DNA of 64,000 nucleotides from Candidatus Latescibacterota bacterium (GCA_963791045.1 CAWBQK010000005.1:1-64000); one strand, 5' to 3'. Counted from the first letter of the stretch, positions 1 through 18,789 are shown. The notes: a model not told the origin generated them from the letters alone. Made by a program: numbers and translations.

Positions 1-1195
1 GAAGCAAGTCACTACGTTTCTCGCAGAACCTTTCTGAAGACCGCCGCCGGTGCAGTTTCAATAATCGGAGCTTTAGGCAATCCGGCAATGGCATCCCAAC
101 CTCAAGCAAGCATGCCGACTCGCCCCTTCGGCAGAACCGGCATCGACGTGCCGATCCTCTCCTTCGGCGGCAGTCTAAATACCTCTCTGAGTACGTTGCT
201 GCTCAGACAGGCCGTCAAGTGGGGAGTCACCTACTGGGATACGGCCAATAGTTACATGGGTGGCAGAAGCGAAAAAGGCATGGGAAAATATTTCGAAAAG
301 TATCCTGCCGACCGCAACCGGATTTTTCTCGTAACAAAGTCCCATGCTTGGAACACGGAGGGCATGAGCGAAGACCTCAACCTATCTATAGAACGCATGC
401 AGACCGATTATATTGATCTTTATTTTATGCATTCCGTGAGCAGCAGCAGCGAACTGACGGCGGACAAAAAAGCTTGGGCCGAAAAGAAGAAGGCCGAAGG
501 CAAAATCCGTCTCTTTGGTTTCAGTACCCATTCCAACATGGAAGAATGCATGCTGGCAGCATCCGGGCTGGGATGGATTGACGGCATTATGATGCGCTAC
601 AACTATCGGCTGATGCACGCCGATGAAATGCGACGGGCAATGGAAAAATGTGCCCAAGCGGGAATCGGTCTGACGGCCATGAAAAGCCAGGGCGGCGGTC
701 AGATAAAAACGGATTCGGAGATCGAACTCAAATTGGCCGGACGATTTGTGAAAAAGGGCTTCACCGATGCCCAGGCCAAACTCAAAGCCGTTTGGGAGCA
801 TCCGAATATTGCCAGCATATGTACGGAAATGCCCAACATGACGCAGCTGATGGCAAACGTGGCAGCTGCAATGAACCGGCGGAAGCTTTCGGCCCAGGAG
901 GTTCATCTGCTCCGGCAATACGCCAGGGAAACACGATCGGATTACTGCACAGGCTGTACCGCCATCTGCGAGTCGGCCGTCGACAGCGACATCCCCATTG
1001 GTGATGTCATGCGTTACCTGATGTACGCCCGCAGCTATGGCGACCGTAGTAGGGGCAGGATGCATTTTAAAAAAATCCCACTGAGAATTCGCCGACAAAT
1101 GGGAGGCTGTGGACTATCGTCCGGCCGAACAAAGATGTCCTCAAAAAATAGCGATCGGCAGTCTCATGCGGGAAGCACTGAAGGAGTTGGGTTAA
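1..1195 (+). CDS. Tat-exported aldo/keto reductase with Cys-containing C-terminal domain (5' partial; apparent frameshift near 1100)
   Basis: Frame 1 from base 1 reads EASHYVSRRTFLKTAAG (twin-arginine motif) into ORF 88..1209. AKR motifs: RPFGRTG, WDTANSY, IDLYFMH, GFSTH. C-terminal YCTGCTAIC. The true end DYRPAEQRCPQKIAIGSLMREALKELG* lies in another frame (TAA 1193-1195) and matches the downstream paralog. Confidence 0.88.
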
Positions 1196-1212
1196 AAAAG
1201 GAGGAATAAATT

Positions 1213-2416
1213 ATGTCTGCTAAAAACAAATGCTGGTCCCGCCGGGATTTTTTAAAGACCGCTGGAATAACCGGCGCCGGTTCACTGTTGGTTCCGACGA
1301 TGCACCTGGCCGAGGCTGCCGAAAAGACGCTACAGGTACCTACCCGCCCATTCGGCAAAACCGGAGCGAATGTATCCATTCTTTCACTGGGCGGTATGTT
1401 CAATATCGCCGCCAATCAAATGTTGATGAAACAGGCCATGAAATGGGGCGTAACTTACTGGGATACGGCGGATTGCTATCAAAGAGGCAGTGAAAAAGGC
1501 ATCGGCAAATATTTCAAAAAATATCCTGAAGATCGTCGCCGGGTTTTTCTGGTAACCAAATCCGACGCCCGCAGCCCCAAAGGCATGACAAAGCTTCTGG
1601 ATCGATCCCTTGGAAAAATGAAAACCAGCTATATTGACCTTTACTTTGTGCACGGGATCTATAGTATTGATGAATTGGATGAGAGCACCAAAACCTGGGC
1701 TGAAAAAGCCAAGGCCGCCGGCAAGATCCGCTTTTTTCGGTTTCAGCACACACAGCAACATGGAAGAATGTATGCTGGAGGCCGCCAAACTCGGCTGGAT
1801 CGACGGTATTATGATGACTTACAACTACCGCCTGATGCATACCGACCGCATGAAGCGTGCAGTAGATGCCTGCGTCAAAGCGGGAATCGGAATGACCGCC
1901 ATGAAAACCCAGGGCGGGGGATCGGTAAAGACGGATACGGATGCCGAGCTCAAAATGGCCGGACAGTTTTTGCAAAAAGGATTTACCGATGCCCAGGCCA
2001 AACTCATGGCAGTTTGGCAGAATCCAAATATTGCCAGTATCTGCTCGCAAATGCCGAACATGACCATTCTGATGGCCAACGCCACCGCTGCCACGGGCAA
2101 GGCGCAACTTTCTTCCAAGGACAGAAAATTATTACAGCAATACGCGCAGGACACGCTCGCGGATTATTGTGCCGGCTGCGCGGCAATTTGTGAGTCTGCC
2201 GTGACAGGTGATGTCCCGATCGGAAAGGTGATGCGGTATCTCATGTACAGCCGCAGCTATGGCGACCATGATCGTGCTTGCCGACGTTTCAGAAATATTG
2301 CGCCCGGCATCCGGCGGCGGATAGCTGACTTAGACTATTCATTGGCCGAACAAAGATGTCCCCAAAAAATGCAGATTGGACGGCTTATGAGAGAGGCGGG
2401 TGAGGAATTATCATGA
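1213..2416 (+). CDS. Tat-exported aldo/keto reductase paralog (apparent frameshift in T-run near 1735)
   Basis: SRRDFLK Tat motif, WDTADCY and IDLYFVH in ORF 1213..2193. Continues in ORF 1634..2416 (GFSTHSNMEEC, YCAGCAAIC, RCPQ). Collinear with the upstream gene. Confidence 0.88.
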
Positions 2417-2457
2417 AAATTAGCTCGTTTTAACTGAATTTTCAATAAACATAATCC

Positions 2458-2571
2458 ATTTTGGATTGTGGATTTCGGATTGTGGATTTGTTGTATCGCT
2501 GCGCTCTATCTGTTTTTATTAAATTGACAGAATACCTTAAATCCAAAATCTAAATTCCCATATCCCAAATC
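2458..2571. repeat. Intergenic inverted repeat built from degenerate heptamers
   Basis: GGATTGT-GGATTTC-GGATTGT-GGATTTG on the left and AAATCCA-AAATCTA-AATTCCC-ATATCCC-AAATC on the right, between convergent genes. Confidence 0.55.
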
Positions 2572-2681
2572 TATGAGGAATAAAAGTGAGATCAATTGTT
2601 AAAAGAAACATTGCGATAGAACGTATGATTTTCACCACCATAGGCTGAATCTGTGAACGCTTACAATTCCAAGACGCCGAA

Positions 2682-2903
2682 TTACGGGGCTTTATAGATA
2701 GCCCGCATGGTCTCAATCTCCGATCGGATCGAGTCCTGCAGCGATTTAGGTGCCAGCACCTTAGCCTTTGCGCCCCACTTCAATACCCAGAATTCAATCT
2801 CCTTGGTGCCGGCCACTTCTGCTTCAAAAATGATGGAACCATCTTTTTGCGTCTCAAATTTCTGAGTGTCATGCCAGGTCTTTTCCCGGATGTATTCGGC
2901 ATA
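2682..2903 (-). pseudogene. C-terminal (WCX) fragment of a WYL-domain transcriptional regulator
   Basis: YAEYIREKTWHDTQKFETQKDGSIIFEAEVAGTKEIEFWVLKWGAKAKVLAPKSLQDSIRSEI fits the end of WYL/PafC-type proteins. The HTH and WYL parts are missing. Confidence 0.75.
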
Positions 2904-4213
2904 CCCGTGCCGATTGCGCATCCATGGGAACCCGCCAAAGTAGGGGCATAACGAATCGTTACCGTCTTCATCTGGCCATTAGTGAGAGCATATCCCCCTC
3001 CACCCGATACGATACTATAATGATCGCAGATTTCACTCACATCCCCCGATAGCGTGCCTCCCCCAGTGTTGGTTATTGTAAAGGTGGTATCTTTATAAGT
3101 CCCCGCAACAACGGTTCCAAAATCAATATTAGAGAGACTCATGTCACATTCGGGGGGATCATCCCCTACACCCGAGCATGATACATTCGCACATTCTGCC
3201 CCTGTTTCTATCGTGCAATCGTGTGTTCCACTTACTGTCGGTTCGAAGCGGACAGAAACAATCACAGATTGATTGAATGCAAGACTGTAATAACCCCCTC
3301 CTGACACGATGCGGTAGTGATCGCATGTTTCTTCAACAGATCCAGAGAGAAGACTCTCTCCCGTATTGGTAATGGTGAAATCCAAATCTGATGTATTCCC
3401 GATCGTGATGTTGCCAAAATCGAGCGTTGACTTGCTCACCAGGCAACTTGGCGGGGATTCCGCGACTCCCGTACACGACACATTGACACATTCTGTCCCC
3501 GTTTCGATCGTGCAGTTCTGGGTGCCGCTCGCGGTAGGTTGATATCTCACCGTGACGGTTAAAAACTGCCCGGTGGTGAGAGCGAATGGACCCGCTCCAG
3601 CAAAAATGTCGAAATGAGAGCAGGTCTCACTGACGTTTCCGTGCAATGTCTCTTCTCCGACATTAGTAATTGTAAAAGTCGTGTCTTTATATGCTCCAAC
3701 CGTCAGAGCACCGAAATCAAGGCTGGTTAAACTAAGTTGGCATTCTGGAGGGTTGATGCAAATTCCCGTCATTGAAATATCCGCGCACTCCGTACCTGTG
3801 GAGATCGTACAACTCAACGTACCACTCACAGTCGGAGAAAAACGCACGGTTGCGGTTACCGATTGATCGGCAGTTAGATCAAAATTTCCACCCCCTCCCG
3901 AAACGATATTAAAATACGAGCACGTCTCGCTAAAACTCCCGATCACCCTTCCTTCTCCAGTATTAGTAACAGTAAACGTTGTGTCTTTAAACTCACCAAC
4001 GGTAAGAGTCCCGAAGTCAATAGCCTCAGGTACGATGAGACATTTCGGATCCTTGATTTGAACTGGATTATCTTTTGAGCAAACTGTCAGAAGGCAAATC
4101 AAAAGCAGAAGTGGGATGAGAAGTGGTAGCCTTGAAACTCGGAGATATTTCAGCACTGCTGCCCCCCCAAGAATATATTTCGTTCGAAATAGAAACGGCT
4201 CGATCATTACCAT
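2903..4213 (-). CDS. Secreted protein with four Cys-rich Ig-like (ASH / choice-of-anchor D type) repeats; 3' end broken at ~2903
   Basis: Hydrophobic N-terminal stretch, then four ~100-aa repeats (C-x6-DFG..VG..KDTTFTITNTG...SETC.H..I.SGGG...VRF.PT.SG...CTI.TG). The repeat pattern stops after GCAIGTG, and the ORF tail to 2780 is an off-frame reading of the WYL fragment. Confidence 0.8.
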
Positions 4214-4510
4214 TTATTCATAATCGAGCATAGAGCACCGGCATTCAAATTCTATACAGCAAAAACAGGATAGGTCAATCACGAGTGCTCAATCATCCGT
4301 AATGCAATACTTAACAGACCTAACTATATATGTCAACGAAAATTAGCATTATGAGCCTTTGCCTATCCTCAATCTTGTTCTCTAAAAGTAAACTCGCTAG
4401 AATTAGATAGCGGACGATGTCGTCATTTAAGTGAATGGGGGATTCTTGTGTTAACCGAGAATTTCACAGGCACACCTGCAGGTATCAACATTCTGTAGTG
4501 TTGATGGCGA

Positions 4511-4570
4511 GTTCTCTGTTTTTTGGGAGAGCCGAATTGAGCGAAATAGGCGCTTTTGTGTTAACCGAGA
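4511..4570 (+). repeat. 60-bp repeat, copy 1 (cassette left-end segment)
   Basis: 54/60 identical, ungapped, to 9169-9228. Ends in TTGTGTTAACCGAGA. Confidence 0.9.
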
Positions 4571-4705
4571 ACATCGCGTGGCTGCTTGGGTCGTCCGCGT
4601 CCGCCTTTATTAGTGAGGGAGGTGGAATCTTTGATGGGGCGGGCTCTGTTTAAGCGCGATCGAGTTTTCGGACACTACGGGGTATCGGTTCCCCACTATA
4701 TTAAA

Positions 4706-4752
4706 CTGGCCCCCCAGATGATACCCTAAAACGAACCTGTCTCACTTTTTTT
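4706..4752 (+). repeat. att-like 47-bp direct repeat, copy 1
   Basis: CTGGCCCCCCAGATGATACCCTAAAACGAACCTGTCTCACTTTTTTT, 46/47 identical to 7315-7361. It begins like the reverse complement of the tRNA-Asn 3' end (TGGCTCCCC). Confidence 0.9.
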
Positions 4753-4780
4753 TGGTCTGCTCCATGAAACACTCCTTTCC

Positions 4781-4796
4781 TGGTATAATTATACCA
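4781..4796. promoter_or_regulatory. Perfect 16-bp palindrome with an extended -10 (TGnTATAAT) on both strands
   Basis: TGGTATAATTATACCA, flanked by a further ACACTCC/GGAGTGT inverted pair (4769-4775 and 4798-4804). Confidence 0.5.
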
Positions 4797-4987
4797 TGGA
4801 GTGTCCTTCAACTTTTTGCTTGATTCTGTCCTAGAGGTGTTGACGCCAAACAATAAACTCAATTATAGCCTAGAAAGTGTCTTGTAAACTGGGGGAAGTC
4901 CAGAGTAAAATCAGTATGTGAGCCGGGGAAGGGAGTAAATTTTATACATTTCTTTTTCCTCCCTATCTTAATTAAAAGGAGGCCGCT

Positions 4988-7033
4988 GTGGATCTTATAA
5001 AAGGGAAATATTCATGGCTACTATTGTTTACATCAATTCTATTCCTTTTGATTATCACCAGTAATACGCATGCGATGGACATTGAAATTAGGAGCATTAG
5101 CAACGCTAACCTCATCGTGGCTGAAGGAGAGGAGCCTGTTGAAATCGTTCTCGCCGGTGAGGGTCTGGATCAAATCACTTTGATTGAACCTTTTATTGGC
5201 GATGAACTCGTCGAGGATTTCGAGATTACCAAAGGAGAATTTTCCGGAAATCAACTCACCCTCATATTAAAAGCAGGGCCCAGCACCACTTATGGTTGTT
5301 GCCTTACTCTCAAACTTAAAATTGGAGAAGACACGGTTGAACTCTACACTCCTCTCGCCCTCGCCGGTGCCGTACCCGCAATTATCGAAAGAGGATCGAC
5401 ACTTAAAACAGGTCAGAAACCAAGCAGTTACAGACCGCCTCCCCCTCCTCCTCCCGCCCCATGCAAGATCGTCTCTTTTCTAATCAACAAGGGTGCTGCG
5501 AAAACAAAGACCAGAACGGTTACGCTCAATAACTCTGCTCCAGGCGCAACTCGTTATCGAGCAAGCGAGCTCTCATCATTCAATGGTGTGCGCTGGTCGA
5601 CCTATAGCAGCGCCCCCCAATTCCTGTTGAGCGATGGGTTGGGGACCAAAACAGTATACTTCCAAGTATATTGTTCCAGCGGCGCTTCCACCGTATTTTC
5701 CGATAGAATCACCTATGACAATCTTCCGGAGCAGGAAACTGAAAGAGTTATGATGTACGATGTCTGGGAGACGGGTACTAATCGCTTAGAGCTATTTTGC
5801 AAGGAGGCTTCTCAGGAATTTATTGCAACAGGAGAATACCTTGAAGAAGTATATTTAGACTTTACTACTTCAGGGAGTGAATATCAGCATACAGTCTTTG
5901 TCGAACTACAAAAGTATATCTCTGGAGATCCAGATAAATCCGATTCCTGGCAGACTCTTAAACAGATAAGGAAGAATACTAACGGACTACTCCCTCCCAT
6001 CGCTTTCCAGTTTGATCCTGCTTTCCGGTTAACAGTCGGAAATATTTACAGAATTCAGCTCAAGATGTCTCGAAAAAACAATATCGGAGTAACGGCTTCC
6101 AGTGATGCATACTTATACAATCAGGCACCTCGAAATTACGACTTGAATATGCGCGTAAAGGGACGCCGCATAAATCGTGCTCCAGCACCTGCACGTCCTA
6201 CTAAAACCGCTCTTATTGTTGTACTAGAAAATGGCGGTGTTGGGTTGGATAGCATTCCAGTTTTAAATAATCTTCCTCCCGCTATTCCCACGTTTCGATG
6301 CGGAAGTTGGGAATTTCCCAGGAAAGAAAACGAGAATACCCTGCAATTTCTCGCCAGATTGTGGGGAATGTTGAGTGAAAATGCATACTGTCTTCAGCCC
6401 TGGGAGTGGCAGCCATATATCCTCATCACATCGGACTGGTGGCAGAAAATATCGGACAAATTATTAGAAGATGTGAGTGAGGCAGTTCGCATGGCGGTGG
6501 ATGGCGGCACTCCATACACATATGACAAAGTACAAGTTCTCCGGGACAGTGATGCGAATCCGAGCCGTCTAATATCCACTCTCGCCAATCTCTCGAGAAG
6601 CTACATAATTGATATCCATGTTTTAACTCACGGAGGGGAGAAGACTATTTGCGGTAAAGAACATATTACCGTTCCAAACTTTTTTATCCCCATGAAACAA
6701 CGTATTGTCAGGGATGAAATGTATCTTAACCTTAGGGCTGTATACCAGATGAACTGCAAGAGCGGCACACTCGTGCCGGATTGGCGCGGATTGGGAGCAG
6801 AAGTAGTTAATGGGACTTTTCAGGAATACAACAACTACATGCCTTCTCAGTACTACCATTTCATGATTCACTGGTTGAATAACGAGACTTTCGATGAAGC
6901 AACTTCGAAAAGTTATGAGGACGCAAGACCATACTTTGAGGCAATTTGGGCCGAAGAACCGGATAATGTAATTATGAGCAAGCTGTTTGTCACCGGAACC
7001 GGAACTGTGAAAATGACAACCCGGACAAAGTGA
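4988..7033 (+). CDS. Secreted multidomain hypothetical protein (Pro linker, Ig-like module, possible clan CD protease-like C-terminal domain)
   Basis: 681-aa ORF with AAGGAGG RBS before GTG, signal peptide ending THA, RPPPPPPPAP linker, and C-terminal IDIHVLTHGG...LRAVYQMNC. Confidence 0.8.
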   Translation: MDLIKGKYSWLLLFTSILFLLIITSNTHAMDIEIRSISNANLIVAEGEEPVEIVLAGEGLDQITLIEPFIGDELVEDFEITKGEFSGNQLTLILKAGPSTTYGCCLTLKLKIGEDTVELYTPLALAGAVPAIIERGSTLKTGQKPSSYRPPPPPPPAPCKIVSFLINKGAAKTKTRTVTLNNSAPGATRYRASELSSFNGVRWSTYSSAPQFLLSDGLGTKTVYFQVYCSSGASTVFSDRITYDNLPEQETERVMMYDVWETGTNRLELFCKEASQEFIATGEYLEEVYLDFTTSGSEYQHTVFVELQKYISGDPDKSDSWQTLKQIRKNTNGLLPPIAFQFDPAFRLTVGNIYRIQLKMSRKNNIGVTASSDAYLYNQAPRNYDLNMRVKGRRINRAPAPARPTKTALIVVLENGGVGLDSIPVLNNLPPAIPTFRCGSWEFPRKENENTLQFLARLWGMLSENAYCLQPWEWQPYILITSDWWQKISDKLLEDVSEAVRMAVDGGTPYTYDKVQVLRDSDANPSRLISTLANLSRSYIIDIHVLTHGGEKTICGKEHITVPNFFIPMKQRIVRDEMYLNLRAVYQMNCKSGTLVPDWRGLGAEVVNGTFQEYNNYMPSQYYHFMIHWLNNETFDEATSKSYEDARPYFEAIWAEEPDNVIMSKLFVTGTGTVKMTTRTK

Positions 7034-7090
7034 TTACCGTAACATTTCAAGTAGAAACGGTGGCAGGTCAACCGAGCCTTTGGTTGGCTA

Positions 7091-7142
7091 GTTGTGTTAA
7101 CCAAATCTTTGCTCTCAGCTGCAAATCTGAGAGTATGAGAGC
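7091..7142 (+). repeat. Cassette right-end segment homologous to 13441-13492
   Basis: TTGTGTTAACCAAATC is identical and AATCTGA and TGAGAGC fall in register (34/52 ungapped). Both copies lie ~230 bp left of an att-like core. Confidence 0.75.
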
Positions 7143-7240
7143 ATTCCGGGCTATTAATCGGTCCCCGGTCGACACCCAGATTCTAACCTGAGAACACACC
7201 AATCCTTTACCCCCACAAATCCCTTATCCCTTACACATAT

Positions 7241-7278
7241 ACAGAAGCCCTGCTCTCGACTGAGAGCAGGGCTTCTGT
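7241..7278. terminator. Perfect 17-bp stem hairpin, probable terminator
   Basis: ACAGAAGCCCTGCTCTC-GACT-GAGAGCAGGGCTTCTGT between convergent genes. Confidence 0.75.
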
Positions 7279-7314
7279 TAACCGGTGGAGCGCCAGGTTC
7301 GCTTTTACATAATT

Positions 7315-7361
7315 CTGGCTCCCCAGATGATACCCTAAAACGAACCTGTCTCACTTTTTTT
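7315..7361 (+). repeat. att-like 47-bp direct repeat, copy 2
   Basis: 46/47 identical to 4706-4752. Its TGGCTCCCC matches 13673-13681 exactly. Confidence 0.9.
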
Positions 7362-7535
7362 AAGGTTTATCGGATTCAACTAAGTGCAATAATAACAGCT
7401 CGGATGGAATTAACGGGAGGGACAGGCAAAGCTCTTCGATAATAGAATGTTGCATTGAGCATATCGAACGAATCTCGGCCCAGATAATATGGCGCAACGC
7501 CTACTCGGAAATCTGCCCGATCGGCTGAGGCATAA

Positions 7536-9056
7536 CTAACGTAACCGCTTGGAATCATATTTGCTAACAGGGCGCCATTTTAGGGACAACCAGTAATTGG
7601 CAGAGCTTGCAGCTTCAAACCACCAATGAACCTTGATGGTGCTGCCAACGACAATATCATCAGGCTGTGAAACGATCTCTGCGCTTCCATTCCCGCGCGC
7701 TTTGACTCTGAGCAGGGTTATTCTTTCGGGAACCCACAGTTTTCGCCATGGGACACCATAAGGATGATCGTCCGTCACTATCCAACTATCTTTCACGGTC
7801 CAATAGTCATCTCCTTTGTCGCCGATTACACCCCAGTGACTCTTACCCAGGTTGGGGTGTGTAGACCCAAGGGGAGGCCGTTCGACGTTAAGATTACGCC
7901 GGTCTTTTTGGAGAGTGAAGGTTACCCAGTTCGTGGATTGACCATTGATAACCAGCTTGATTCTGGTCTGAATTTGAGTTCGGCCCTTCCACTTTAATTT
8001 CGGGTAGATATCTCCCGGGTGATGAAGGGTGATTGTATTCGTCGGGCAACACGTGCCCATTTCTTTAACTTTTAAATCCTCAGCGGCATATTTGAAATCC
8101 CCATAATCAACGATGATCTCGTAATCATCAGCTGTTACAATGTCCTTCGCCATCGCATTAGAAAGGTCCAATACAATGGCCTCTCCAGGATAACCCGATG
8201 TCGGACTGATTCGATCGATATGGGTTGGTTTGTCGATAAAAATAGTTCTGAGAACCAGGGATGAGACGCCGTCGCGCCCTTTCACCTGAAGGTATATGTA
8301 ATGCAGTCCCTCTTCGTCCTTGAGAGTAAAGGAAATCTCGTTTGTACCGCTGGCAAGTCTTGCCCAGGAACTGTACACGTCTTTGTTCTTTGTACGATAG
8401 TAATCAGCGTTCGAAGCCGAAAACTGAAGAGTCACCACAGGTCTGGAAGCTACTTCGCGGCCTCTGTTGATCGTGAAGGAGGTGATGCGTGGGGGTGATT
8501 TCACAAACCTTGAACCCCTGGTTTGGATTTGACTGGAAAGGTCCTGATACAAGGCGGGTTGTTCTCCACGCGGCCAAACACCGGTGTAGGAACCAAGCGC
8601 CTCCAGGCCCTTTCCATCCGACAAGAACAGGAATAGACAGGGAATGCCGTCGTCATTTTCGAAGAATAGTGGCGTAGGAACCTGAATGTCTTTGTCGTGA
8701 TTGAAGGATTTTGCCTTAACGAGACCCAGGGTATCGGGTTCGCCTACGATGTGCAACTGGTTTTTATCCTGGCTGTTTAACCAGTAGACTCCAGGTTGAA
8801 TCAATACGTCCCAACCATCTACGCCCTGGAAATGCACCTCTTTTTCGATCCAAAAGCGGCGAATCTCTGACTTGCCGGGCTCCCCTTCCTGGGCATGGGA
8901 TAAATCCCATACAATTCCCGGAACAAATATCAAAGCAAGGAGAAGAACAATGATGCCATAACCATTGCCTTGTCGGATCCGGGAAAAGGTACTCCATCTC
9001 GTTCTGCGATTGGAATTCATCATTACCCCCCATTGATTATTGCCAATTGTGAACAA
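7536..9056 (-). CDS. Secreted or membrane-anchored hypothetical protein with Ig-like modules
   Basis: 506-aa ORF with a hydrophobic segment ending SHA. Module ITSFTINRG...VVTL...W...FTL...G...IYLQV is followed by an IPT/TIG-like PTHIDRISPTSGYPG. Start codon uncertain. Confidence 0.78.
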   Translation of the reverse strand: MFTIGNNQWGVMMNSNRRTRWSTFSRIRQGNGYGIIVLLLALIFVPGIVWDLSHAQEGEPGKSEIRRFWIEKEVHFQGVDGWDVLIQPGVYWLNSQDKNQLHIVGEPDTLGLVKAKSFNHDKDIQVPTPLFFENDDGIPCLFLFLSDGKGLEALGSYTGVWPRGEQPALYQDLSSQIQTRGSRFVKSPPRITSFTINRGREVASRPVVTLQFSASNADYYRTKNKDVYSSWARLASGTNEISFTLKDEEGLHYIYLQVKGRDGVSSLVLRTIFIDKPTHIDRISPTSGYPGEAIVLDLSNAMAKDIVTADDYEIIVDYGDFKYAAEDLKVKEMGTCCPTNTITLHHPGDIYPKLKWKGRTQIQTRIKLVINGQSTNWVTFTLQKDRRNLNVERPPLGSTHPNLGKSHWGVIGDKGDDYWTVKDSWIVTDDHPYGVPWRKLWVPERITLLRVKARGNGSAEIVSQPDDIVVGSTIKVHWWFEAASSANYWLSLKWRPVSKYDSKRLR

Positions 9057-9137
9057 CTCCGGCTAGCTCTCCTTCGTGGATAGCAGAATCACGAATTTCC
9101 CTACTCTAATCAACTGATACAAAATGTGTCAATAAGA

Positions 9138-9168
9138 TTGGCTCTCCGGTCGTAACCCTCTTCGGAAT
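9138..9168 (+). repeat. attL-like junction of the tRNA-proximal unit
   Basis: TTGGCTC core (9138-9144) equals 13672-13678. GTAACCCTCTTCGGAAT (9152-9168) is the exact reverse complement of 13647-13663. Confidence 0.85.
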
Positions 9169-9228
9169 GTTCTCTCTTTTTTGGAAGGGCCGAATTGAGC
9201 AAAATGGGCGGTTTTGTGTTAACCGAGA
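9169..9228 (+). repeat. 60-bp repeat, copy 2
   Basis: 54/60 identical to 4511-4570. Directly follows the att arm. Confidence 0.9.
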
Positions 9229-9361
9229 GCAGTCAGCCTGATCTCTGACCCTCGTTTGACTCGCTACTATATATTTTATGCGAAAGACATTTCGACGTCC
9301 GGAGTTTGGCTTGGTGAGAGTCGACACACTTTCTCTTATCACCCAATTCAGGAGTTTTATC

Positions 9362-10786
9362 ATGAAACGCCTCAAAAACAAATCTATGACGACCGTATTG
9401 GTGTCGGTCGTCCTTTTCCTGGCAATAGCCCTCGTGGCAGGCTGCAGCAATGACGACGACATCACCGAACCCACGACGGTTAATGACACCGTGGACGATG
9501 CCGATTTCGAGGTCACCGACTGGACCAGCGCCACCCACAGCAAGGCCGCGGACCCGAATTTCGACGAGGTGTTCGAGGACAATACCGTCAAGAGAATCGA
9601 CTTCGTCATCACCGCTGAACGCTGGCAGACCATGCTGGACGACATGACGGATCTGTACGGGACCTTCGGGACCGGCGGCGGGCATGCCGCTCGATTTCGA
9701 CGAGGATCCGGTTTTCGTCCCGGCCGAGGTGTTCTACAACGGTATCGAGTGGTATCGGGTCGGTGTGCGCTTCAAGGGAAACTCCAGCCTGGTGTCAACC
9801 TGGCAGAGCGGAATCCTCAAGCTGGCCTTCAAGCTGGATTTCGACGAATTCGAGGATACTTACCCGCAGATCGACAATCAGCGGTTCTACGGCTTCAAGA
9901 AACTGAGCCTCAAGAACAACTATCGACGACCAATCCATGCTGCGAGAAAAAGTCGCCGGTGACGTCTTCCGCAACGCCGGGTTGGCCGGATCCCATACGG
10001 CGTTCTACACCCTCTATGTCGACTATGGAGAGGGCCCCGTCTATTTCGGCGTCTATACCATGGTCGAAGAAGTCGATGACACCGTCCTGGAAACCCAATT
10101 TGCGGATGACGACGGCAACCTGTACAAGCCGGATGGCGACGGCGCTTCCTTCGTCCGAGGGGACATTCAGTGAAGACGTCTTCGTGAAGAAGACCAACGA
10201 GGATGATTCCGACTGGTCGGACATCCAGGCCCTGTTCGACGCCCTGCACGACGACACCCGCACCCAGGATCCCGCGACCTGGCGCGCCAGCCTGGATGCT
10301 GTCTTTGATACCGAGGCCTTTCTCGAGTATCTGGCGGTCAATACCGTCATCCAGAACTGGGACACCTACGGGCAAATGACCCACAACTACTACCTCTACA
10401 ACAATCCTGACACCGGCAAGATGACCTGGATCAACTGGGACAACAACGAAGCCCTTCAGGAGGGAAAGGGCGGGGGATCCCTGGCCCTTGATTTCTCGGA
10501 TCTGGAAAGCGGTCGGTGGCCCCTGATCGAATACCTGTACGCGGACGACGTCTATCGGTCCCGATACGACGCTTATGTGGCAGAGATCATCGTTGGCGCT
10601 TTCAATACGAGTACGATCCAGGCCACGTATGCCGCCTATGCATCGCTGATAGAACCGTATGCCACCACGGAGATCGCCGGGTATACCTTTCTGCACGGAA
10701 GCGGAGATTTTCGGATGGCCATTTCGGAGCTGAACCTACACGCTTCCCAAAGAGCCTCGGCCGTCGGCACCTACCTGGATCAGTGA
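9362..10786 (+). CDS. CotH kinase family lipoprotein (apparent frameshifts near 9685, 9925 and 10155)
   Basis: Lipobox LVAGC. Motifs spread across frames: VGVRFKGNSS, FKLDFDEF, LSLKNNY, MLREKVAGDVF, GVYTMVEEVD, GNLYKP, NWDTYG..HNYYLY, WINWDNNEA. Confidence 0.85.
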   Translation: MKRLKNKSMTTVLVSVVLFLAIALVAGCSNDDDITEPTTVNDTVDDADFEVTDWTSATHSKAADPNFDEVFEDNTVKRIDFVITAERWQTMLDDMTDLYGTFGTGGGHAARFRRGSGFRPGRGVLQRYRVVSGRCALQGKLQPGVNLAERNPQAGLQAGFRRIRGYLPADRQSAVLRLQETEPQEQLSTTNPCCEKKSPVTSSATPGWPDPIRRSTPSMSTMERAPSISASIPWSKKSMTPSWKPNLRMTTATCTSRMATALPSSEGTFSEDVFVKKTNEDDSDWSDIQALFDALHDDTRTQDPATWRASLDAVFDTEAFLEYLAVNTVIQNWDTYGQMTHNYYLYNNPDTGKMTWINWDNNEALQEGKGGGSLALDFSDLESGRWPLIEYLYADDVYRSRYDAYVAEIIVGAFNTSTIQATYAAYASLIEPYATTEIAGYTFLHGSGDFRMAISELNLHASQRASAVGTYLDQ

Positions 10787-10806
10787 GAGCATGCATCATG
10801 AGAACG

Positions 10807-10833
10807 GCGCCCCTTCCTTTTCCGAAGGGGCGC
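10807..10833. terminator. Hairpin after cotH
   Basis: GCGCCCCTTC-7nt-GAAGGGGCGC between convergent genes. Confidence 0.6.
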
Positions 10834-10920
10834 TGTCCGCGGGCATCAGGCATCACTGTCCCTTACAAAAATATCATCCGCCTAGCCACATTTATTGTTG
10901 GCCGGATGGCCTTTTTGGGA

Positions 10921-11025
10921 GGGACACCGGCTCAGCTTCGTGTTTTCGGCCTTTTAGACCACTACCATCTTCCCGCCACCGATTTTTTCGAGAATCTTGT
11001 AGTGGAATATGGTTCGGCCGATCAT
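10921..11025 (-). pseudogene. Degenerate N-terminal remnant of a second Ser/Thr kinase
   Basis: Reads [32 protein letters not shown], matching the neighbour's [33 protein letters not shown]. Its ATG overlaps the neighbour's TGA. Confidence 0.8.
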
Positions 11026-13265
11026 TTGTCTAATCCGATCTTTTTCACCAACGACTGGAAACGCATATTTGACCTAAGACAATCGAAAAAAGGGAACGTG
11101 TTTGAGAATATATTGACCGGAGCCCTGTCTTCGATTGACTTTTCCATGTCATCCAACGCTTCATCAAATTCACCCATACCCACTAAGACGATCGCGCGAT
11201 GGATGGTGGAGACGTATCTCGTCCGAGCCAATTCGTCCAGCCTGGCGAGAATCCGCAGTGCATCGTCCTTTAGTCCGGCCCTGCCGTAAGCTCCTCCGAA
11301 ATACCCAAGTGAGTATGCGTGTTCGGCCGCTAATGGTTCTGCTTTTCGAATAATAGCAACCGCATCGTCATACTTTTCTTTATCCACATATGGCATGGTA
11401 ATATAAGTGGTCGCCAATAGAAAATTCGGATCCATTTCCAGCGCTTTTTTATGATTCGCGATGCTCTCATCGTGCCGGCGTGCAAAATAATACGCAATTC
11501 CTACAACGGTGTTTATTATAAGCGAGAGGGGATCGAGCTCCCGTGCTGTCTCGGCTTCCTCAATCGCTTCATCGAAACGTCCCATAGCCCACAGATATAT
11601 GGCATACCACTCGTGTACTGTTGCGTATTGCGGATTGAGTTCGATAGACCGTACGTACAGCCTTTCCGCAGCGGGCCAATTCCAATCATAACAAGTTGTT
11701 GCCCAAGCCAACGAGGCGTAGGCTTCACCCAATGTGTTATCGATGGCCAGTGCGTTTTCCGCTGCTGCTTTAGCTTTCGGGAATGCCTCCGCCGGTGACA
11801 GAAAACCGAAAAACCCCGTGACGTTATAGACGATCGGCAATCCCTACGTGCGCAAGAACATAATCTGGGTCTTTTTCGATCGCCTGCTGGAAAATTCCAA
11901 GGCCATTCTCATGCCGCCCTCGAGCCTGCGATTCCAGAAGTAGAGTCCCTTGAGATAGAGATTATGGGCTTCCTGGTCGGCCGTGTGTCGTTTTACGAGC
12001 GCACTTCTCTCTTCCGCCATAAGCCGAACCTTGAGCTTATTCACAATGTTCAACGAAATTTCATCCTGGATGGCAAAGATATCATCGAGATCCCGGTCAT
12101 ATTTTTCCGACCAGATGTGAAATCCGTCTTCGACGTTTATGAGCTGCGCGGTGATCCGCAGCCGATTGCCCGACTTGCGAATACTTCCCTCGAGCACAGT
12201 TCTTGACCTTGAGTTGTTCCCCGATCTTTTGGATGTCACTGTCCCGATTTTTGAACTGAAACGCCGATGTGCGCGCCGCAACACGCAGACCTTCGAGTTT
12301 GACCAGTGCGTTTATAAGCTCCTCGGCAATCCCTTCACAGAAATAAGCCTGGTCTTGCTGTGAACTCATATCGCTGAAACGGAAGTACCGCTATCGAAGG
12401 CTTGAATCTCTTGTGCGGTTACCTTTCTCTCCCAAAGTCCCAGGCTTCCAGAGCTTTCGGCAAACAACTCCAGGTCTTTCTTCAGTTCTTCGGCACTCTC
12501 GTACCGGTCTCTCGCGCGTTTCGCTAGAGATCTCGTCAATAATCCGTTCGAGCTTTCTTGGCACATCGGAACGGCGGCTTTTTATCGACGGCGGCTCCTC
12601 ATTAACAATGCGATATATTGTTGCCTGTTCGTAGTCGGCCTTGAAGGGCAGTTCGCCCGTTAGCATCTCGTAGAGCACAATCCCCAGTGACCAGATGTCC
12701 GTCCGATAATCACGGGATCCCCTCTTCCCTGTTCGGGGGACATATAAGCCACCGTTCCAACCGTTGTTCCTGATTGAGTGAGCTGCGTTCTGTCCAGACG
12801 ACTTGGCCAAGCCAAAATCCATCACCTTCACCCGACCGGCCGCAGTGAGCATGATGTTGGCAGATTTGATGTCGCGGTGGATGATCCCATTGCTATGAGC
12901 TTCTTGAAGCCCTTCAGCGACTTCGACGGCGATTCAGACGGCTTCATCGAATGGCAATGGGCCTGAATTGATCTTGGCTTTGAGACTTTCTCCTTCGACA
13001 CATTCCATCACAATGAACGATCGGTTCTTCATACTCGGCGATCTCGTGAACGGTGCAAATATTCGGGTGATTCAGAGCGGCCGCGGACTGGGCTTCGTGG
13101 ATAAAACGACGTCTTGTCTTCCTCGGTACCGACAGCTTGAGGTGAAAGGAATTTCAGCGCGACGGTGCGCTTGAGCTTGGTGTCTTCGGCCTTATAGACC
13201 ACACCCATCCCGCCCTCGCCGAGCTTTTCGAGGATCTTGTAGTGAGATACGGTCTGCCCGATCAT
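11022..13265 (-). CDS. Hanks-type Ser/Thr protein kinase with TolB-N-like domain and TPR repeats (multiple apparent frameshifts)
   Basis: [52 protein letters not shown]. Then [24 protein letters not shown] and [18 protein letters not shown]. TPRs in ORF 11022..11840. Confidence 0.88.
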
Positions 13266-13440
13266 TTTACCCTCCAGCAAGTTAGCAACGCGGTGGGCAA
13301 GACAAAAGGTGCGAATCCTAGGAGTGGCCCTGATTATAGCGGAGGGCCGACCGGCTGTACAGGATCAACTCCTTGGGCACCTAACGGATGCGGAGATCTA
13401 GGTTTCCGTGGCCGCTAATAGGTGAGTGCGACGTGGATCG

Positions 13441-13492
13441 TTTGTGTTAACCAAATCGGAAAACAGCTTTCAGAATCTGAAACTTTGAGAGC
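13441..13492 (+). repeat. Cassette right-end segment homologous to 7091-7142
   Basis: See the 7091-7142 entry. GTTAACCAAA (13446-13455) also has an inverted partner TTTGGTTAAC (13538-13547). Confidence 0.75.
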
Positions 13493-13646
13493 GATTTGGC
13501 CGAACTCTTCGCCCTAATTCTGAACAAGGGAAGCCCGTTTGGTTAACGGTCACAAAATCTCCCTACATCTCGTTGACTAGACAAGCTTCTTGCATATTTA
13601 AAAATGTGGAATCCTAGAAATCGAATCCGGCGTTCTGACACGGGAA

Positions 13647-13678
13647 ATTCCGAAGAGGGTTACAAACGAAGTTGGCTC
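13647..13678 (+). repeat. attR-like junction overlapping the tRNA-Asn CCA end
   Basis: ATTCCGAAGAGGGTTAC-AAACGAAG-TTGGCTC. The arm is the reverse complement of 9152-9168. Confidence 0.85.
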
Positions 13679-13747
13679 CCCGGGTAGGACTTGAACCTAC
13701 AACCCTGCGGTTAACAGCCGCATGCTCTACCATTGAGCTACCGAGGA
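13673..13747 (-). tRNA. tRNA-Asn (GTT)
   Basis: 75-nt cloverleaf TCCTCGG...TGCGG-CTGTTAA-CCGCA...GTAGG-TTCAAGT-CCTAC-CCGGGGA-G-CCA. Confidence 0.97.
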
Positions 13748-13834
13748 GCCTGATTTTGTGTCAGGTATATGTAGTTGGCAACGACACGCCGGGAGGCCAA
13801 AAGGGCCGCGCCGCGAGCCATTATCGGACGCCGA

Positions 13835-13863
13835 ATAATAACGTGTAGGGGGGCGTTTGTCAA
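13835..13863 (-). promoter_or_regulatory. Sigma70-type promoter of tRNA-Asn
   Basis: TTGACA-17bp-TATTAT on the minus strand. Confidence 0.7.
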
Positions 13864-14053
13864 TACGTGAACCCCCGCTTTTTAAGGGGCTTAGGGCACC
13901 CCCAGACGGCACAAACTCGCCAAAAACCAACCCAATCCCCGCTTTACACCACCCCCCGAATCCAGCATAATAGCCCCTGCGAAATTCCATCATAAAAGCA
14001 TGTTCGGCACACCGGCGCACACGGCCGGCTTTCTCACAAAAGGAGACTCCGTT

Positions 14054-15928
14054 ATGAAGCGGTTCCTCGCATTCTCGCTAATCGCCCTCGCGCTTCCGTT
14101 GTGGCTCGGCTGCAGCGGAGAGGACAGCGCCCCCTCGGACAAGGCCCAGGTCGCCCAGGACACCGACGCCGCCGAGGAGGAAATGACTCTCCCTGAACAC
14201 ATAACCAACTACGATCTCAAACTCCAGCTGAGAAAGTTCGCGAAGGTCGACATCGAGTACGACGAGTCGGTGCTTTCCGCTCCTGAAAAAGAAGCCCTCG
14301 GCAAACTCGTCAACGCCGGCCGCATTATGGACGACATTTTTTTCCGCCAGGTATGGGCAGGCAACGAGGATTTCAAAAAGGAATTCGACACGGTTCACAT
14401 TTGGGCTCATCAACACCCGTTCACCAAACTCGGTGAAGAAGTCGACTTGATCCACAATTTGAATCGTTATTACAACATCAACTTCGGCCCGTGGGATCGT
14501 CTGGAGGAAGACGCACCGTTTATCACGACGACACCAAAACCCAAAGGCGCAAACTACTACCCCGAAGATATGACGGCGGAAGAGTTCGATAATTTCCTCG
14601 CCGAGAACAAGGACATGGTAGAGGACTTCCGTGGGTACTTCACAACAATAAGACGAAAAGACGGCAAGCTCACCGCCGTACCCTACAGCGTGGAGTACAA
14701 AGACCTTCTCGAGAAAGCCGCCACACTCCTCCACGAAGCGGCGGACATTCTCACCAAACCAGAAAACAAAGCGAAATTCGCGTCGGGTACCGACTACACA
14801 TCGCTTGCAAAATATCTCAAGAGCCGCGCGGATGCTTTTTCATCGAACACATACCGCGACAGCGACATGAACTGGATGGACGTCAAAAACAACATCATCG
14901 ACGTGACCATCGGCCCGTACGAGGTCTACGAGGACGCCCTTTTCGGGTACAAGGCGGCGTTTGAAGCGTTTATCGCTATTCGCAACCCGGCGGACAGCAA
15001 GAAGCTCGAGGGCATCAAACGCTATCTGCAAAAACTCGAAAACGCACTCCCGATCCCCGACGAACACAAGAATCCGAACCGCGGTTCAGAGTCGCCGATC
15101 AGCGTCGTCGATCTCGTTTACTCGGGCGGCGACACCAAGGCCGGCGTGCAAACCATCGCTTTCAATCTGCCGAATGACGAATACGTCCGCGAGGCCAAAG
15201 GCAGCAAGAAGGTCATGCTCAAGAACATCTCGCGCGCCAAGTTCGACAAGATCCTTACCCCCATCGCCGAACAAGTTCTCGATCCCAGCCAGATGGACCT
15301 GGTGGTTTTCGAAGCGTATTTCAACAATACATTAATGCACGAACTCTCGCACGGGCTCGGCCCGGGAACGATCATGAAGGACGGCAAGGAGACCACGGTC
15401 AACCTCGAGCTCAAGGAACTCTACTCGTTTATCGAGGAAGCCAAAGCGGACATCCTCGGTCTCTACTGCACGAACGTTCTTATCAAGGAAGGATTCCTCG
15501 ACAAAGAATTGGGCAAGAAGGGATACGTTTGTTTTCTGCCGGGGTTCTTTCGCTCGATCCGGTTTGGCGCCACGTCGGCACACGGCAAGGCGAACATGAT
15601 GGAGTTCAACTACCTCCGCGAGAAGGGCGGGATCGTTCTCGATCCCGAGACGGACAAGTTCCATGTCAACGTGGACAAGATGCCCGCGGCGGTCGAGGCG
15701 ATGTCGAAGGAGCTTTTGATGCTCCAGGCACTTGGCGATTACGATGCGGCCAAAGCCTTCATCGAAAAATACGGCAATACGACCGACGACCTCGAACGGC
15801 TTCTTGCCAAGCTCGACAAGATTCCCGTCGATATCGAACCGATCTTTGCAGCGGAAGATTATCTCGAGGATAGCCGCCGCCGGTACGCTCATCCGAAGAT
15901 CGAGGACGATCACGGGCACACTCACTAG
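14054..15928 (+). CDS. Peptidase M49 (dipeptidyl-peptidase III-like) zinc metallopeptidase, lipoprotein
   Basis: AGGAG RBS, lipobox WLGC, GANYYPEDMT, IGPYEVYED, AFNLPND, MHELSHGLGP, EEAKAD. Confidence 0.9.
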   Translation: MKRFLAFSLIALALPLWLGCSGEDSAPSDKAQVAQDTDAAEEEMTLPEHITNYDLKLQLRKFAKVDIEYDESVLSAPEKEALGKLVNAGRIMDDIFFRQVWAGNEDFKKEFDTVHIWAHQHPFTKLGEEVDLIHNLNRYYNINFGPWDRLEEDAPFITTTPKPKGANYYPEDMTAEEFDNFLAENKDMVEDFRGYFTTIRRKDGKLTAVPYSVEYKDLLEKAATLLHEAADILTKPENKAKFASGTDYTSLAKYLKSRADAFSSNTYRDSDMNWMDVKNNIIDVTIGPYEVYEDALFGYKAAFEAFIAIRNPADSKKLEGIKRYLQKLENALPIPDEHKNPNRGSESPISVVDLVYSGGDTKAGVQTIAFNLPNDEYVREAKGSKKVMLKNISRAKFDKILTPIAEQVLDPSQMDLVVFEAYFNNTLMHELSHGLGPGTIMKDGKETTVNLELKELYSFIEEAKADILGLYCTNVLIKEGFLDKELGKKGYVCFLPGFFRSIRFGATSAHGKANMMEFNYLREKGGIVLDPETDKFHVNVDKMPAAVEAMSKELLMLQALGDYDAAKAFIEKYGNTTDDLERLLAKLDKIPVDIEPIFAAEDYLEDSRRRYAHPKIEDDHGHTH

Positions 15929-17745: not shown

Positions 17746-17808
17746 AGTCAGAGCCTATCAGTTATTGAAGGAGTTCTCAAGACCGGCCGGGTGGCGCCCC
17801 AAAACAAC

Positions 17809-17843
17809 AAAAAAACGGCGAGTGACACATGGCCACTCGCCGT
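17809..17843 (-). terminator. Intrinsic terminator of the ArsR operon
   Basis: Minus strand ACGGCGAGTG-9nt-CACTCGCCGT followed by a T-run. Confidence 0.8.
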
Positions 17844-17859
17844 ACCCCTGAGCCAACAG

Positions 17860-17906
17860 GGCTCTATCAAACTCTCGGCGGACACGCCGCCGGTTTACCA
17901 GATGCC
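17860..17906 (-). promoter_or_regulatory. Candidate bacterial SECIS after the FmdB UGA
   Basis: UGA-GGCAUCUGGUAAAC-CGGCGG-CGUGU-CCGCCG-AGAGUUUGAUAGAGCC. The apical loop with GU starts 20 nt after the UGA. Confidence 0.55.
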
Positions 17907-18104
17907 TCAGGTGGAGCCGGCGCACTGCGGGCCGGCCGACGGACAACTCGCCTCGGACTGTCCACCCTTGGCGAACGTACTGAACATAATCTTGCCTTCT
18001 CCCCCGCAATCGGGGCACGCGATCGGTTCTTCGCGATCGGCCATGTTGCGAAGTTCAAAAAACTCACCTTCGCATTTTTCACATTTGTATTCGTACAACG
18101 GCAT
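17895..18104 (-). CDS. FmdB-family zinc-ribbon protein, candidate selenoprotein (UGA at 17907-17909)
   Basis: MPLYEYKCEKC...CPDCG. Tail SCPSAGPQCAGST-UGA-GIW-UAA. Confidence 0.85.
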
Positions 18105-18130
18105 GGTTACCTTCCCTGTTTTTCTTTTGA

Positions 18131-18493
18131 TCAGCACATCCCGTTCGCGCGTCTCGCTCGTTCGAGATTCGCGATCTCTTCCCATGTATATCGATTGTCG
18201 GTTGTCACGTTTTCTTTTGCGCATAACGAATCCATAATCTGCGTAAGCGCCGGGTCGGACAGCGAGAAAACGACTTCGACGCCGTTTCGCTCGGCCCTGA
18301 CCAGTCCTTCGGAACGAAGCACCTTGAGGTGCTGCGCCACCGATGACTGGGGAACCCCCAACGTCTCCGCTATAAATGTCTGGGTGCACGGCTGGTTGCG
18401 AAGCCCGCACACCATCTCGAGCCGAAGCGGGTGCGACAGCGCCTTGAGCACGCCGGCCGCACGTTGGAATTTATCTTTCAATGAATCGCTCAT
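18131..18493 (-). CDS. ArsR/SmtB family transcriptional regulator
   Basis: LKALSHPLRL, IAETLGVPQSSVAQHLKVLR..GLV..ERNG. Confidence 0.93.
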   Translation of the reverse strand: MSDSLKDKFQRAAGVLKALSHPLRLEMVCGLRNQPCTQTFIAETLGVPQSSVAQHLKVLRSEGLVRAERNGVEVVFSLSDPALTQIMDSLCAKENVTTDNRYTWEEIANLERARRANGMC

Positions 18494-18660
18494 CGCGAGT
18501 CCTCTTCCCGCTTTTTTGTTTTCTCATCCGGCCCGACCGGCCGGTCACATGAAGCCGTTGCTCAGGTCGGGACGCCGAGCCGCGGGAGAACCCATACAAT
18601 GAGGATCATGTATACGGCGATGCCCACGGCGGCGAAGCCAAACGTTTTTAGCGCTTCCAT
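18490..18660 (-). CDS. Small single-pass membrane protein, candidate selenoprotein (UGA at 18562-18564); not in the ORF track
   Basis: MEALKTFGFAAVGIAVYMILIVWVLPRLGVPT-UGA-ATASCDRPVGPDEKTKKREEDSR*. The read-through stop overlaps the ArsR start (ATGA). Confidence 0.7.
18523..18561 (-). promoter_or_regulatory. Candidate bacterial SECIS
   Basis: UGA-GCAACGGCU-UCAU-GUGA-CCGGCC-GGUCG-GGCCGG-AUGA: 6-bp GC stem, GGUC-type loop 23 nt after the UGA, lower UCAU/AUGA stem. Confidence 0.65.
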
Positions 18661-18712
18661 CTCGTCAACCACATCCCTAACTTGTTAAAAATCAAACATA
18701 ATTACTTTATCG

Positions 18713-18748
18713 TTGTATTATGATAATACAAACCAGCGAATCTGTCAA
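18713..18748 (-). promoter_or_regulatory. Sigma70 promoter overlapped by a palindromic operator (likely ArsR site)
   Basis: TTGACA (18748-18743)-17bp-TATCAT (18725-18720). Perfect 8-3-8 inverted repeat TTGTATTA-TGA-TAATACAA at 18713-18731. Confidence 0.75.
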
Positions 18749-18789
18749 GGGGAGGCTCACATATTTTTGAAAGAGTTGAACGGGGGGGG

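Follow-up and report, generated by a model that had tools for sequence, protein, structure and literature searches.

Tandem islands at RNA gene 3' ends

In Dehalococcoides, islands lie in tandem downstream of ssrA and are bounded by a 20-bp repeat of the 3' end of that gene (McMurdie et al., 2011, PMC3146451). According to that paper's account of the ssrA islands, the repeat extends into the gene for the large serine recombinase (LSR) DsiB, leaving the stop codon of that gene uncertain, and islands without integration modules are read as cis-mobilizable or fixed. Here we analyze the first 64 kb of contig C5 (CAWBQK010000005.1:1-64000, hereafter the window) of a Candidatus Latescibacterota genome bin (G000), in which a series of short repeats leads up to the 3' end of a tRNA-Asn gene. 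With moderate confidence we read the region between roughly 4.5 and 13.7 kb, which may reach back to the contig start, as a fossil array accreted by LSRs at that tRNA end, the LSRs having since been lost.

The locus shares with the ssrA islands, as that paper portrays them, their tandem arrangement downstream of a tRNA or tRNA-like gene (single-copy in the case of ssrA), a short direct repeat of the target 3' end, an LSR stop codon that depends on the junction and the occurrence of islands without a module. It differs in its target (tRNA-Asn in this order vs. ssrA in Dehalococcoides), in its units of 1.8–4.5 kb with one or two genes as opposed to the six-gene integration module described there, and in having several families of arms, including a 56-bp palindrome, in a bin where no recombinase of this kind was found. 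SCC and SCCmec elements, as summarized in the same source, are also integrated by an LSR (Ccr) at the 3' end of a conserved gene, and their composites grow by tandem accretion that includes ccr-less elements bounded by integration-site repeats. However, these much larger elements target a protein gene (rlmH/orfX), and their recombinases usually reside within the array. Integrons, with which the initial annotation had compared the locus, likewise stack small units with unrelated cargo at a fixed site, but no IntI was found here (PF00589 matches in G000 fall only on contigs C17, C21, C3, and C13, with none in the window), the genes lie in both orientations, probably with their own promoters, and the sites appear to be tRNA-end cores with LSR-type symmetry rather than attC hairpins.

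In a preprint on tycheposons (10.1101/2020.12.28.424599), tyrosine recombinases are given for 910 of 937 elements at tRNA genes and LSRs for the rest. A literature search, with supplements outside its range, returned no paper on LSR cassette arrays at tRNA-Asn. An initial annotation of the window, made from its sequence, had not recognized the arrangement as a named system; tandem LSR islands at an ssrA 3' end are nevertheless already published (PMC3146451, in its account of those islands), and what sets the present case apart, in a lineage new for such islands, is an attP-like palindrome with its axis on the CC of the tRNA CCA end.

Four junctions share a core with the tRNA-Asn 3' end

The bin comprises 3.66 Mb in 21 contigs, with a completeness of 80.9% and a contamination of 5.8%. 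Its tRNA-Asn(GTT) gene (13673..13747, minus strand) was the sole Rfam match across 1–20 kb. On the plus strand the final 9 nt of this gene appear as TGGCTCCCC (13673-13681), the core that the four junctions share with at most one mismatch; the CC of the CCA end corresponds to GG at 13674-13675. The GG positions reported by the initial annotation (4708, 7317, 9140, and 13674) were all recovered, as were the sizes of the four units they delimit (approximately 4.5, 1.8, 2.6, and at least 1.8 kb), and we could confirm that 2.4–13.7 kb contains no intact recombinase or transposase.

Site A (4687..4752, plus strand) consists of the core TGGCCCCCC at 4707, followed by a 38-nt right arm, AGATGATACCCTAAAACGAACCTGTCTCAC, and a T run. 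Site B (7296..7361, plus strand) has the exact core TGGCTCCCC at 7316 and the same right arm. As reported, 4706-4752 and 7315-7361 are identical at 46 of 47 positions; the match extends to 66 nt at 86% (4687-4752 and 7296-7361), and with up to 10 substitutions allowed no third copy turned up in the 3.66-Mb assembly. To the left of site B lies a flank (7180..7315, plus strand) containing GAGAACAC, CACATATAC, a hairpin (7241-7278), GTTAACC, and CCAG(G/T)T(T/C)C. The third site (9138/9139) had been described as aligning with A and B without gaps, and it did not prove to be a diverged copy of them: site C (9139..9168, plus strand) consists of the core TGGCTCTCC, GGTC, and GTAACCCTCTTCGGAAT, a 17-mer that is the inverse of the one at site D (13647..13672, plus strand), where ATTCCGAAGAGGGTTAC and 9 further nt are joined at the core to the tRNA. 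The 17 nt to the right of core C (9152-9168) are the exact inverse of 13647-13663, which ends 9 nt left of the tRNA; by simple arithmetic, about 0.01 such exact 17-nt inverted matches are expected in 18 kb.

The extra conserved segments noted at unit ends were also borne out. Site C is followed by a 63-nt module, R63b (9169..9231, plus strand), which ends in TTGTGTTAACCGAGA and which in relatives follows the complete palindromic site described below. A second copy without core or 17-mer, R63a (4511..4573, plus strand), is 89% identical to it. The sequence TGTGTTAACC has five copies genome-wide, all of them in this region and on the plus strand. Between R63a and site A lies the motif GTTTTCGGACACTACGGGGT (4647..4684, plus strand), and the related genome G010 has the same order of R63a, GGACAC motif, and site A, with the right arm of A and B matched there at 80%. 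Each repeat family has two copies in G000, both in the window.

The core by itself is only weakly above chance, and the signal sits in the flanks. The claim of a shared TGGC[T/C]C core held as far as the repeats are concerned and not for the core taken alone. Exact TGGCTCCCC occurs 37 times in the genome, both strands counted; on one strand of 11.26 kb it was seen once against 0.057 expected (P = 0.055). With up to one mismatch allowed, five were seen (3055, 4707, 7316, 8877, and 9139) against 1.12 expected (P = 0.006), of which 3055 and 8877 fall inside genes and A and B are copies of each other.

These weak core statistics are what would be expected of an artefact, in which chance 9-mers were combined with a chimeric contig joined near 9.1 kb. 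GC content is 43–49% across 2–9 kb vs. 53–60% from 13.5 kb onward, a contrast that we count in favor of the fossil-array reading. In favor of a chimera, GC steps from about 48% to about 57% at site C itself; the contamination of the bin and the lack of read coverage of 3–9 kb to examine would also suit a chimera. However, R63 copies lie on both sides of the step (at 4511 and 9169), the exact 17-nt inverted match is far too rare by chance, as calculated above, and the flanks have homologs in independent genomes that end at the identical core, making an artefact very improbable.

A palindromic site split between two junctions

Taken together, the arms of sites C and D form a 56-bp palindrome centered on GG, in keeping with the initial description of the sites as of serine-recombinase type. 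In this site, which we call X, two inverted arms of 17 nt enclose a 22-nt spacer, the 11th and 12th bases of which are GG. The geometry holds in all four intact copies, which span three related genomes (G010, G002:C67, G007:C56, and G007:C59), and in the composite of the left half from D and the right half from C. In G010 the site reads ATTCCGAAGAGAGTTAC-GAACGTCAA-TGGCTCCCC-ACCC-GTAACCCTCTTCGGAAT and is followed by the 63-nt module, with the A/B right arm 430 nt away; the G002 copy is arranged in the same way, and the arms are more degenerate in the two G007 copies. In the window the halves lie 4.5 kb apart with their cores in direct and their 17-mers in inverted orientation, the latter 9 and 4 nt from the core. 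The axis of the composite is the GG reported by the initial annotation, on the CC of the tRNA CCA end. The crossover dinucleotide of a serine recombinase must be non-palindromic to give polarity, and GG fits.

All seven kinase-side copies have GGGGAGCCA at a fixed 9-nt distance from the 17-mer, 16 of the 21 matches to the C/R63 module outside G000 begin within 5 nt of the first core base, and in an alignment of nine C/R63 copies conservation starts at the core.

At each junction in the window, what appear to be element-derived arms flank a retained copy of the terminal 9 nt of the tRNA (TGGCTCCCC, at most one mismatch). The innermost unit (9139-13681, with a CotH gene, a kinase stub, and a kinase) would then be bracketed by the halves of the 56-bp attP-like site, and a crossover at the central GG, with X on a circular molecule and the tRNA end as the target of its insertion, would yield precisely the hybrid junctions C and D, both in direct orientation. 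An inversion involving these two sites is ruled out, since the hybrid cores would then face opposite ways, and they are direct. For the 2.6-kb unit between A and B, which encodes a 681-aa protein, the right end is homologous to tRNA-proximal element ends in G007 (LSR-bearing) and G006, and the left arm is common to the next unit.

Site B does not have X-type symmetry, its two arms coming from different families. An inverted repeat around it (AGGTTCGCTTTTA and TAAAACGAACCT, 28-nt spacer) was considered as a second palindromic att site and was dropped, being centered 3-4 nt away from the GG and having sides from different families. The flank to the left of site D was likewise rejected as a private arm of one element, as G002:C48, G034, and others show it to be a conserved family.

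The initial annotation had named dispersal of the repeats independent of tRNA loci as a finding that would count against it, and in relatives this is partly what was seen, whereas in G000 the repeats are confined to the window. They might then be families of dispersed intergenic repeats, either MITE/REP-like or protein-binding regulatory modules upstream of kinases, that contain a tRNA-like 9-mer, with ordinary accessory genes between them and without any cassette having moved. C/R63 copies occur one to five times per genome in seven other genomes (at 76–90% identity) and the D-left flank in six, at loci without tRNA-Asn and with ordinary gene neighbors; no recombinase lies near any of the dispersed copies, and elsewhere in G000 two inverted copies of the GGACACTACGGGG motif make up a 110-nt pair. 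We nevertheless think this unlikely. Every repeat family in G000 is restricted to the window, the break between the X halves coincides exactly with the final 9 nt of a real tRNA gene, to which they are joined, the distance of GGGGAGCCA is constant in seven of seven copies, and neither a MITE nor an operator has any use for symmetry about a non-palindromic GG. Neither did RNAalifold give a supported fold for the nine C/R63 copies on the one strand analyzed (-1.6 kcal/mol, with no compensatory changes among seven predicted pairs). Two copies per family are few for a MITE or IS derivative, and the 9/4-nt spacing is asymmetric for a 9-bp duplication.

Large serine recombinases read across the core in related genomes

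The comparison set comprised 35 other genomes of the order, none of the same genus; the M49 peptidase gene next to the tRNA has its closest counterpart there at 68% identity. On a metagenome contig with an M49 peptidase 71% identical to that of the window (L021), tRNA-Asn is met by a gene for a 498-aa LSR (Resolvase, Recombinase, and Zn-ribbon domains) that ends ...EKNWLPG* and adjoins an HUH Rep gene. Its last codons, TGG CTC CCC GGG TAG, are the complement of the tRNA-Asn 3' end. The same holds in G017 (contig C311, ending ...NKIWLPG*) and for a more distant LSR in G026 (contig C47, ending ...NWLPG*): in all three the gene crosses TGGCTCCCC|GGGTAG, and the WLPG* codons are supplied by TGGCTCCCCGGGTAG of tRNA-Asn. 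That the tRNA-Asn 3' end serves as a serine-recombinase target, as first proposed from the window, is thus corroborated in relatives.

Further genomes showed other states of such elements. In G004 (contig C373) the LSR frame stays open past the core and takes in 26 nt that mimic a tRNA, where no tRNA is present, as would be expected of an attP-like form. A C-terminal LSR remnant in G013 (residues 432-485, 54 residues, 50% identical) abuts tRNA-Asn, and two LSR elements in G007 have far ends that stop at the core. Approximately 135 nt to the left of site B align with flanks touching tRNA-Asn in G007:C16 and G006:C372, and the LSR-bearing contig G007:C2 aligns with them at its end; the hairpin and an invariant GTTAACC are among the blocks in common.

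The array might instead descend from islands of tyrosine integrases (or another recombinase) at the tRNA, with the enzyme genes lost and the repeats representing displaced tRNA 3' fragments and arm-type sites. Identity blocks of 9–12 nt and tRNA-like fragments of 25–27 nt (G002:C48 and G026:C276) are of the usual tyrosine-integrase size, and motifs of the TGTGTTAACC type could be arm sites. In addition, a tyrosine integrase fragment that neighbors a tRNA-Asp on contig C3 has coding sequence resembling the 44 nt at 7381-7424 (82%), although this match is weak (E = 0.002 against the genome). The window has the 9-nt direct repeats and no integrase. None of the 125 ORFs scanned at the tRNA-Asn and X loci of relatives is a tyrosine recombinase, as opposed to four LSRs, and LSRs are the only recombinases that touch tRNA-Asn there. 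By comparison with loxP- and dif-type sites, 17-nt arms 22 nt apart also lie too far from each other for a simple tyrosine core site. A tyrosine-recombinase origin is accordingly quite improbable to us.

Three observations were made on recombinases and tRNA genes outside this locus. Among 16 distant members of the LSR family checked in other phyla (L087–L103; Acidobacteriota, Dehalococcoidales, Patescibacteria, Candidatus Desulfaltia, and a Methanosarcinaceae bin), 11 have a tRNA gene on the opposite strand just beyond the match, lying head-on against tRNA-Arg, -Ser, -His, or -Gln, which suggests a broad clade of LSRs specialized on tRNA 3' ends. G011 has two different tRNA-Asn genes with an identical 24-nt flank (L073 3377-3452 on contig C98, and L083 on contig C132), and an LSR fragment at the end of a contig lies 88 nt from one of them; the bin may contain two strains, or one tRNA may be carried by an element. 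At its very end, contig C3 of G000 (107130-107681, L016) carries tRNA-Asp and, after it, a partial tyrosine integrase gene (C-terminal portion, containing a TAG); this is probably another island broken by assembly.

Small recombinase-less units at tRNA-Asn in a sister family

Eight loci in a sister family have at least 4 kb downstream of tRNA-Asn, and in six of them one or two further exact copies of TGGCTCCCC follow in the same orientation (two each in G015, G018, and G023; one each in G022, G031, and G013; none in G020 and G029). The junction consensus is gcgATAGAAAAAGAA-TGGCTCCCC-AGrGTGGtGGAyGT, and its left side, ...AIEKEWLPG, matches the LSR tail ...VIEKNWLPG. Units range from 1.0 to 6.0 kb. 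Those of G015 and G018 are 1.0–1.7 kb with one main ORF in either orientation, and the single units of G022, G013, and G031 measure 2.3, 2.4, and 6 kb, that of G031 carrying Fic, an IS, and an MT-A70/BglII restriction-modification pair. Several of the ORFs end in ...TWGRIKALYR. No recombinase was found in any of these units, and G015, G018, and G023 have no LSR anywhere in their genomes. Stacks of small units with one or a few genes in either orientation and no recombinase, as proposed for the window, are therefore real at tRNA-Asn in this order.

In eight genomes of one sister genus (G015, G018, G020-G023, G029, and G033), tRNA-Asn itself is split in the anticodon region by 242–543 nt. The insert in G015 (L005 13132-13375) is a group I intron (RF00028, 95.5 bits, E = 2.6e-25), and the longer one in G018 contains a 125-aa ORF in which an HNH-like CxxC...HH...CANCH pattern can be seen by eye.

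A probable fossil array and a possible docking site

The reading of the locus as a fossil LSR array goes beyond the architecture of the sites, the homologies of their flanks, and the LSR genes that cross the core in relatives, all of which were observed directly. We infer that an LSR made the junctions of the window, that the units were mobilized in trans, and in what order events took place.

Several findings weigh against this reading. No LSR was detected in G000 by PF07508, PF00239, or the L021 LSR as query, in an assembly that is 80.9% complete. Searches of window positions 1-20000 by tblastn with four LSRs gave nothing better than E = 0.03, and adding one Rep to the queries revealed no remnant; a 14-residue match at 13643-13684 (seven identities, E = 1.8) owes four of its seven identities to the WLPG encoded by the tRNA. 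Relatives that are complete or nearly so and have arrays or X copies (G015, G018, G023, G010, and G012) lack an LSR as well. Intact X, leader, and C/R63 copies are dispersed away from tRNA-Asn in relatives, lying upstream of kinase paralogs and next to ordinary genes (an aminotransferase, a pseudouridine synthase, and an antiporter) with no recombinase nearby. The D-left flank and its kinase are 78% conserved in another genus (G002:C48, flank 22/24 identical), where the flank is kept up to the core and runs into a 25-26-nt tRNA mimic directly after the stop codon of another kinase; the innermost unit may therefore be old, or the D-left flank native. The left sides of C and A match no known arm, the exact core is found only at B and D with weak core-only statistics, and the 9-12 nt of identity shared at the junctions do not by themselves discriminate serine from tyrosine recombination. 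Finally, comparisons were across genera, with no same-genus genome to reveal gain or loss of units.

The initial annotation had envisaged a variable surface-protein locus at work. The array looks decayed instead, and the broken state of its cargo (CotH, the kinase, and others), in which assembly indels may have a part, argues against an active cassette system.

More speculatively, tRNA-Asn across the order may be the dock of an integron-like capture of genes run by LSRs, an idea we hold to be possible though doubtful. Small cassettes without a recombinase would carry their own attP (the 56-bp palindrome here; elsewhere the last 40-60 nt of an LSR gene), and the LSR of a transient element would insert them in trans, stacking outward from the tRNA. 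With its final four codons and stop (WLPG*) supplied by the tRNA, the gene for such an LSR would have its C-terminus rewritten on integration and excision, as a built-in switch of direction. If the fossil-array reading holds, LSRs, beyond tyrosine integrases, build tRNA-anchored stacks of accessory genes in uncultured sediment bacteria, their footprints outlast the enzyme, and fossil arrays can be recognized by the last 9 nt of the tRNA together with arms symmetric about GG. The natural attP/attB pairs with matching LSRs (L021, G017, and G026) are candidate tools for site-specific integration, while the window alone, a degraded example without its enzyme, is of modest value.

Genes between the junctions and neighboring sequences

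On one side of tRNA-Asn lie intact genes for the M49 peptidase and a gamma-glutamyltranspeptidase, and on its 3' side are foreign-looking or broken genes. M49 adjoins tRNA-Asn in the family of the window, and many contigs break 13–730 nt from the tRNA 3' end. A scan of metagenomes with the M49 peptidase found no same-genus contig extending past the tRNA, the best being fragments at 79% and 85% without the upstream side. Four public sediment runs share 5–7% of words with the window, and their contigs (85% likeness) cover the aldo-keto reductase genes, 2.4–3.0 kb, the kinase, and the tRNA, with essentially nothing of 3–9 kb. The left boundary of the island was not found, base 1 of the window being the contig start.

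Near that start are two aldo-keto reductase genes, the second of which (1213-2416) changes to another frame from about 2150, through either a frameshift or an assembly indel. Neither has an ortholog in the family; the sole match is in G006 at 35%. They are followed by a 79-aa WCX-domain fragment (2682..2921, minus strand), the C-terminal part of a truncated WYL-type regulator gene, and by a gene for a 477-aa lipoprotein-like protein with repeated Ig-like (HYDIN/ASH/DUF1573) domains (2780..4213, minus strand). The unit between A and B encodes the 681-aa protein (4988..7033, plus strand), which has a signal-peptide-like N-terminus and no Pfam family, and for which no full-length relative was found in the 35 other genomes. 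The next unit encodes a 506-aa protein (7536..9056, minus strand), again without a Pfam family or a relative in those genomes. The two have one domain of approximately 145 aa in common (29% identity, E = 3e-8), and their lack of orthologs in the order also counts in favor of the fossil-array reading.

In the innermost unit, the CotH-family gene (9278..10786, plus strand) is spread over three frames, with Pfam profile positions 1-43, 48-114, and 130-320 falling in different frames; either it is frameshifted at least twice or the assembly carries indels. It is followed by a 23-codon stub of a second Ser/Thr kinase gene (10934..11027, minus strand; 79% identical to 13174-13267) and by a Ser/Thr kinase-TPR pseudogene (11022..13280, minus strand) in at least four reading frames (13280-13029, 12852-12391, 12284-11844, and 11840-11022), which has intact relatives of 757–780 aa in G002 and G007. 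Between the kinase and the D half of site X is a non-coding leader (13281..13646, plus strand), 68–78% conserved in six other genomes of the order at several loci each. The cargo had been described as mostly exported proteins. Signal- or lipoprotein-like N-termini, judged by eye, support this for the 477-, 681-, and 506-aa proteins and CotH, whereas the kinase-TPR pseudogene is of a cytoplasmic type. The bin encodes type IX secretion tails.

Next to site A is a remnant (4762..4830, minus strand) like the left end and leader of an IS3-family element, 77% identical to C1 21054-21122, which there lies upstream of orfA. The sequence CGATCG(A/T)nTTTTCGGACACTACGGGGT, present in single copies in the window (4647-4684), G010, G004, and G026, forms an inverted pair of approximately 110 nt on contig C1 of G000 (14168-14278, L015 4169-4279), in the vicinity of a transposase fragment and of a partial match to a tRNA (C1:18148-18203), and looks like a MITE-type repeat family.

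A non-coding stretch at 2458-2637, within 2401-3000, consists of GGATTGTGGATTT repeats plus their inverse; no Rfam family matches it, and it occurs just once in G000. The stretch 2401-3000, which includes the WCX fragment, reaches a very high summed contig depth (318–1677) in four sediment metagenomes, and loose contig ends accumulate there at 2458 and 2637; the stretch may be a widespread small mobile or repeat element.

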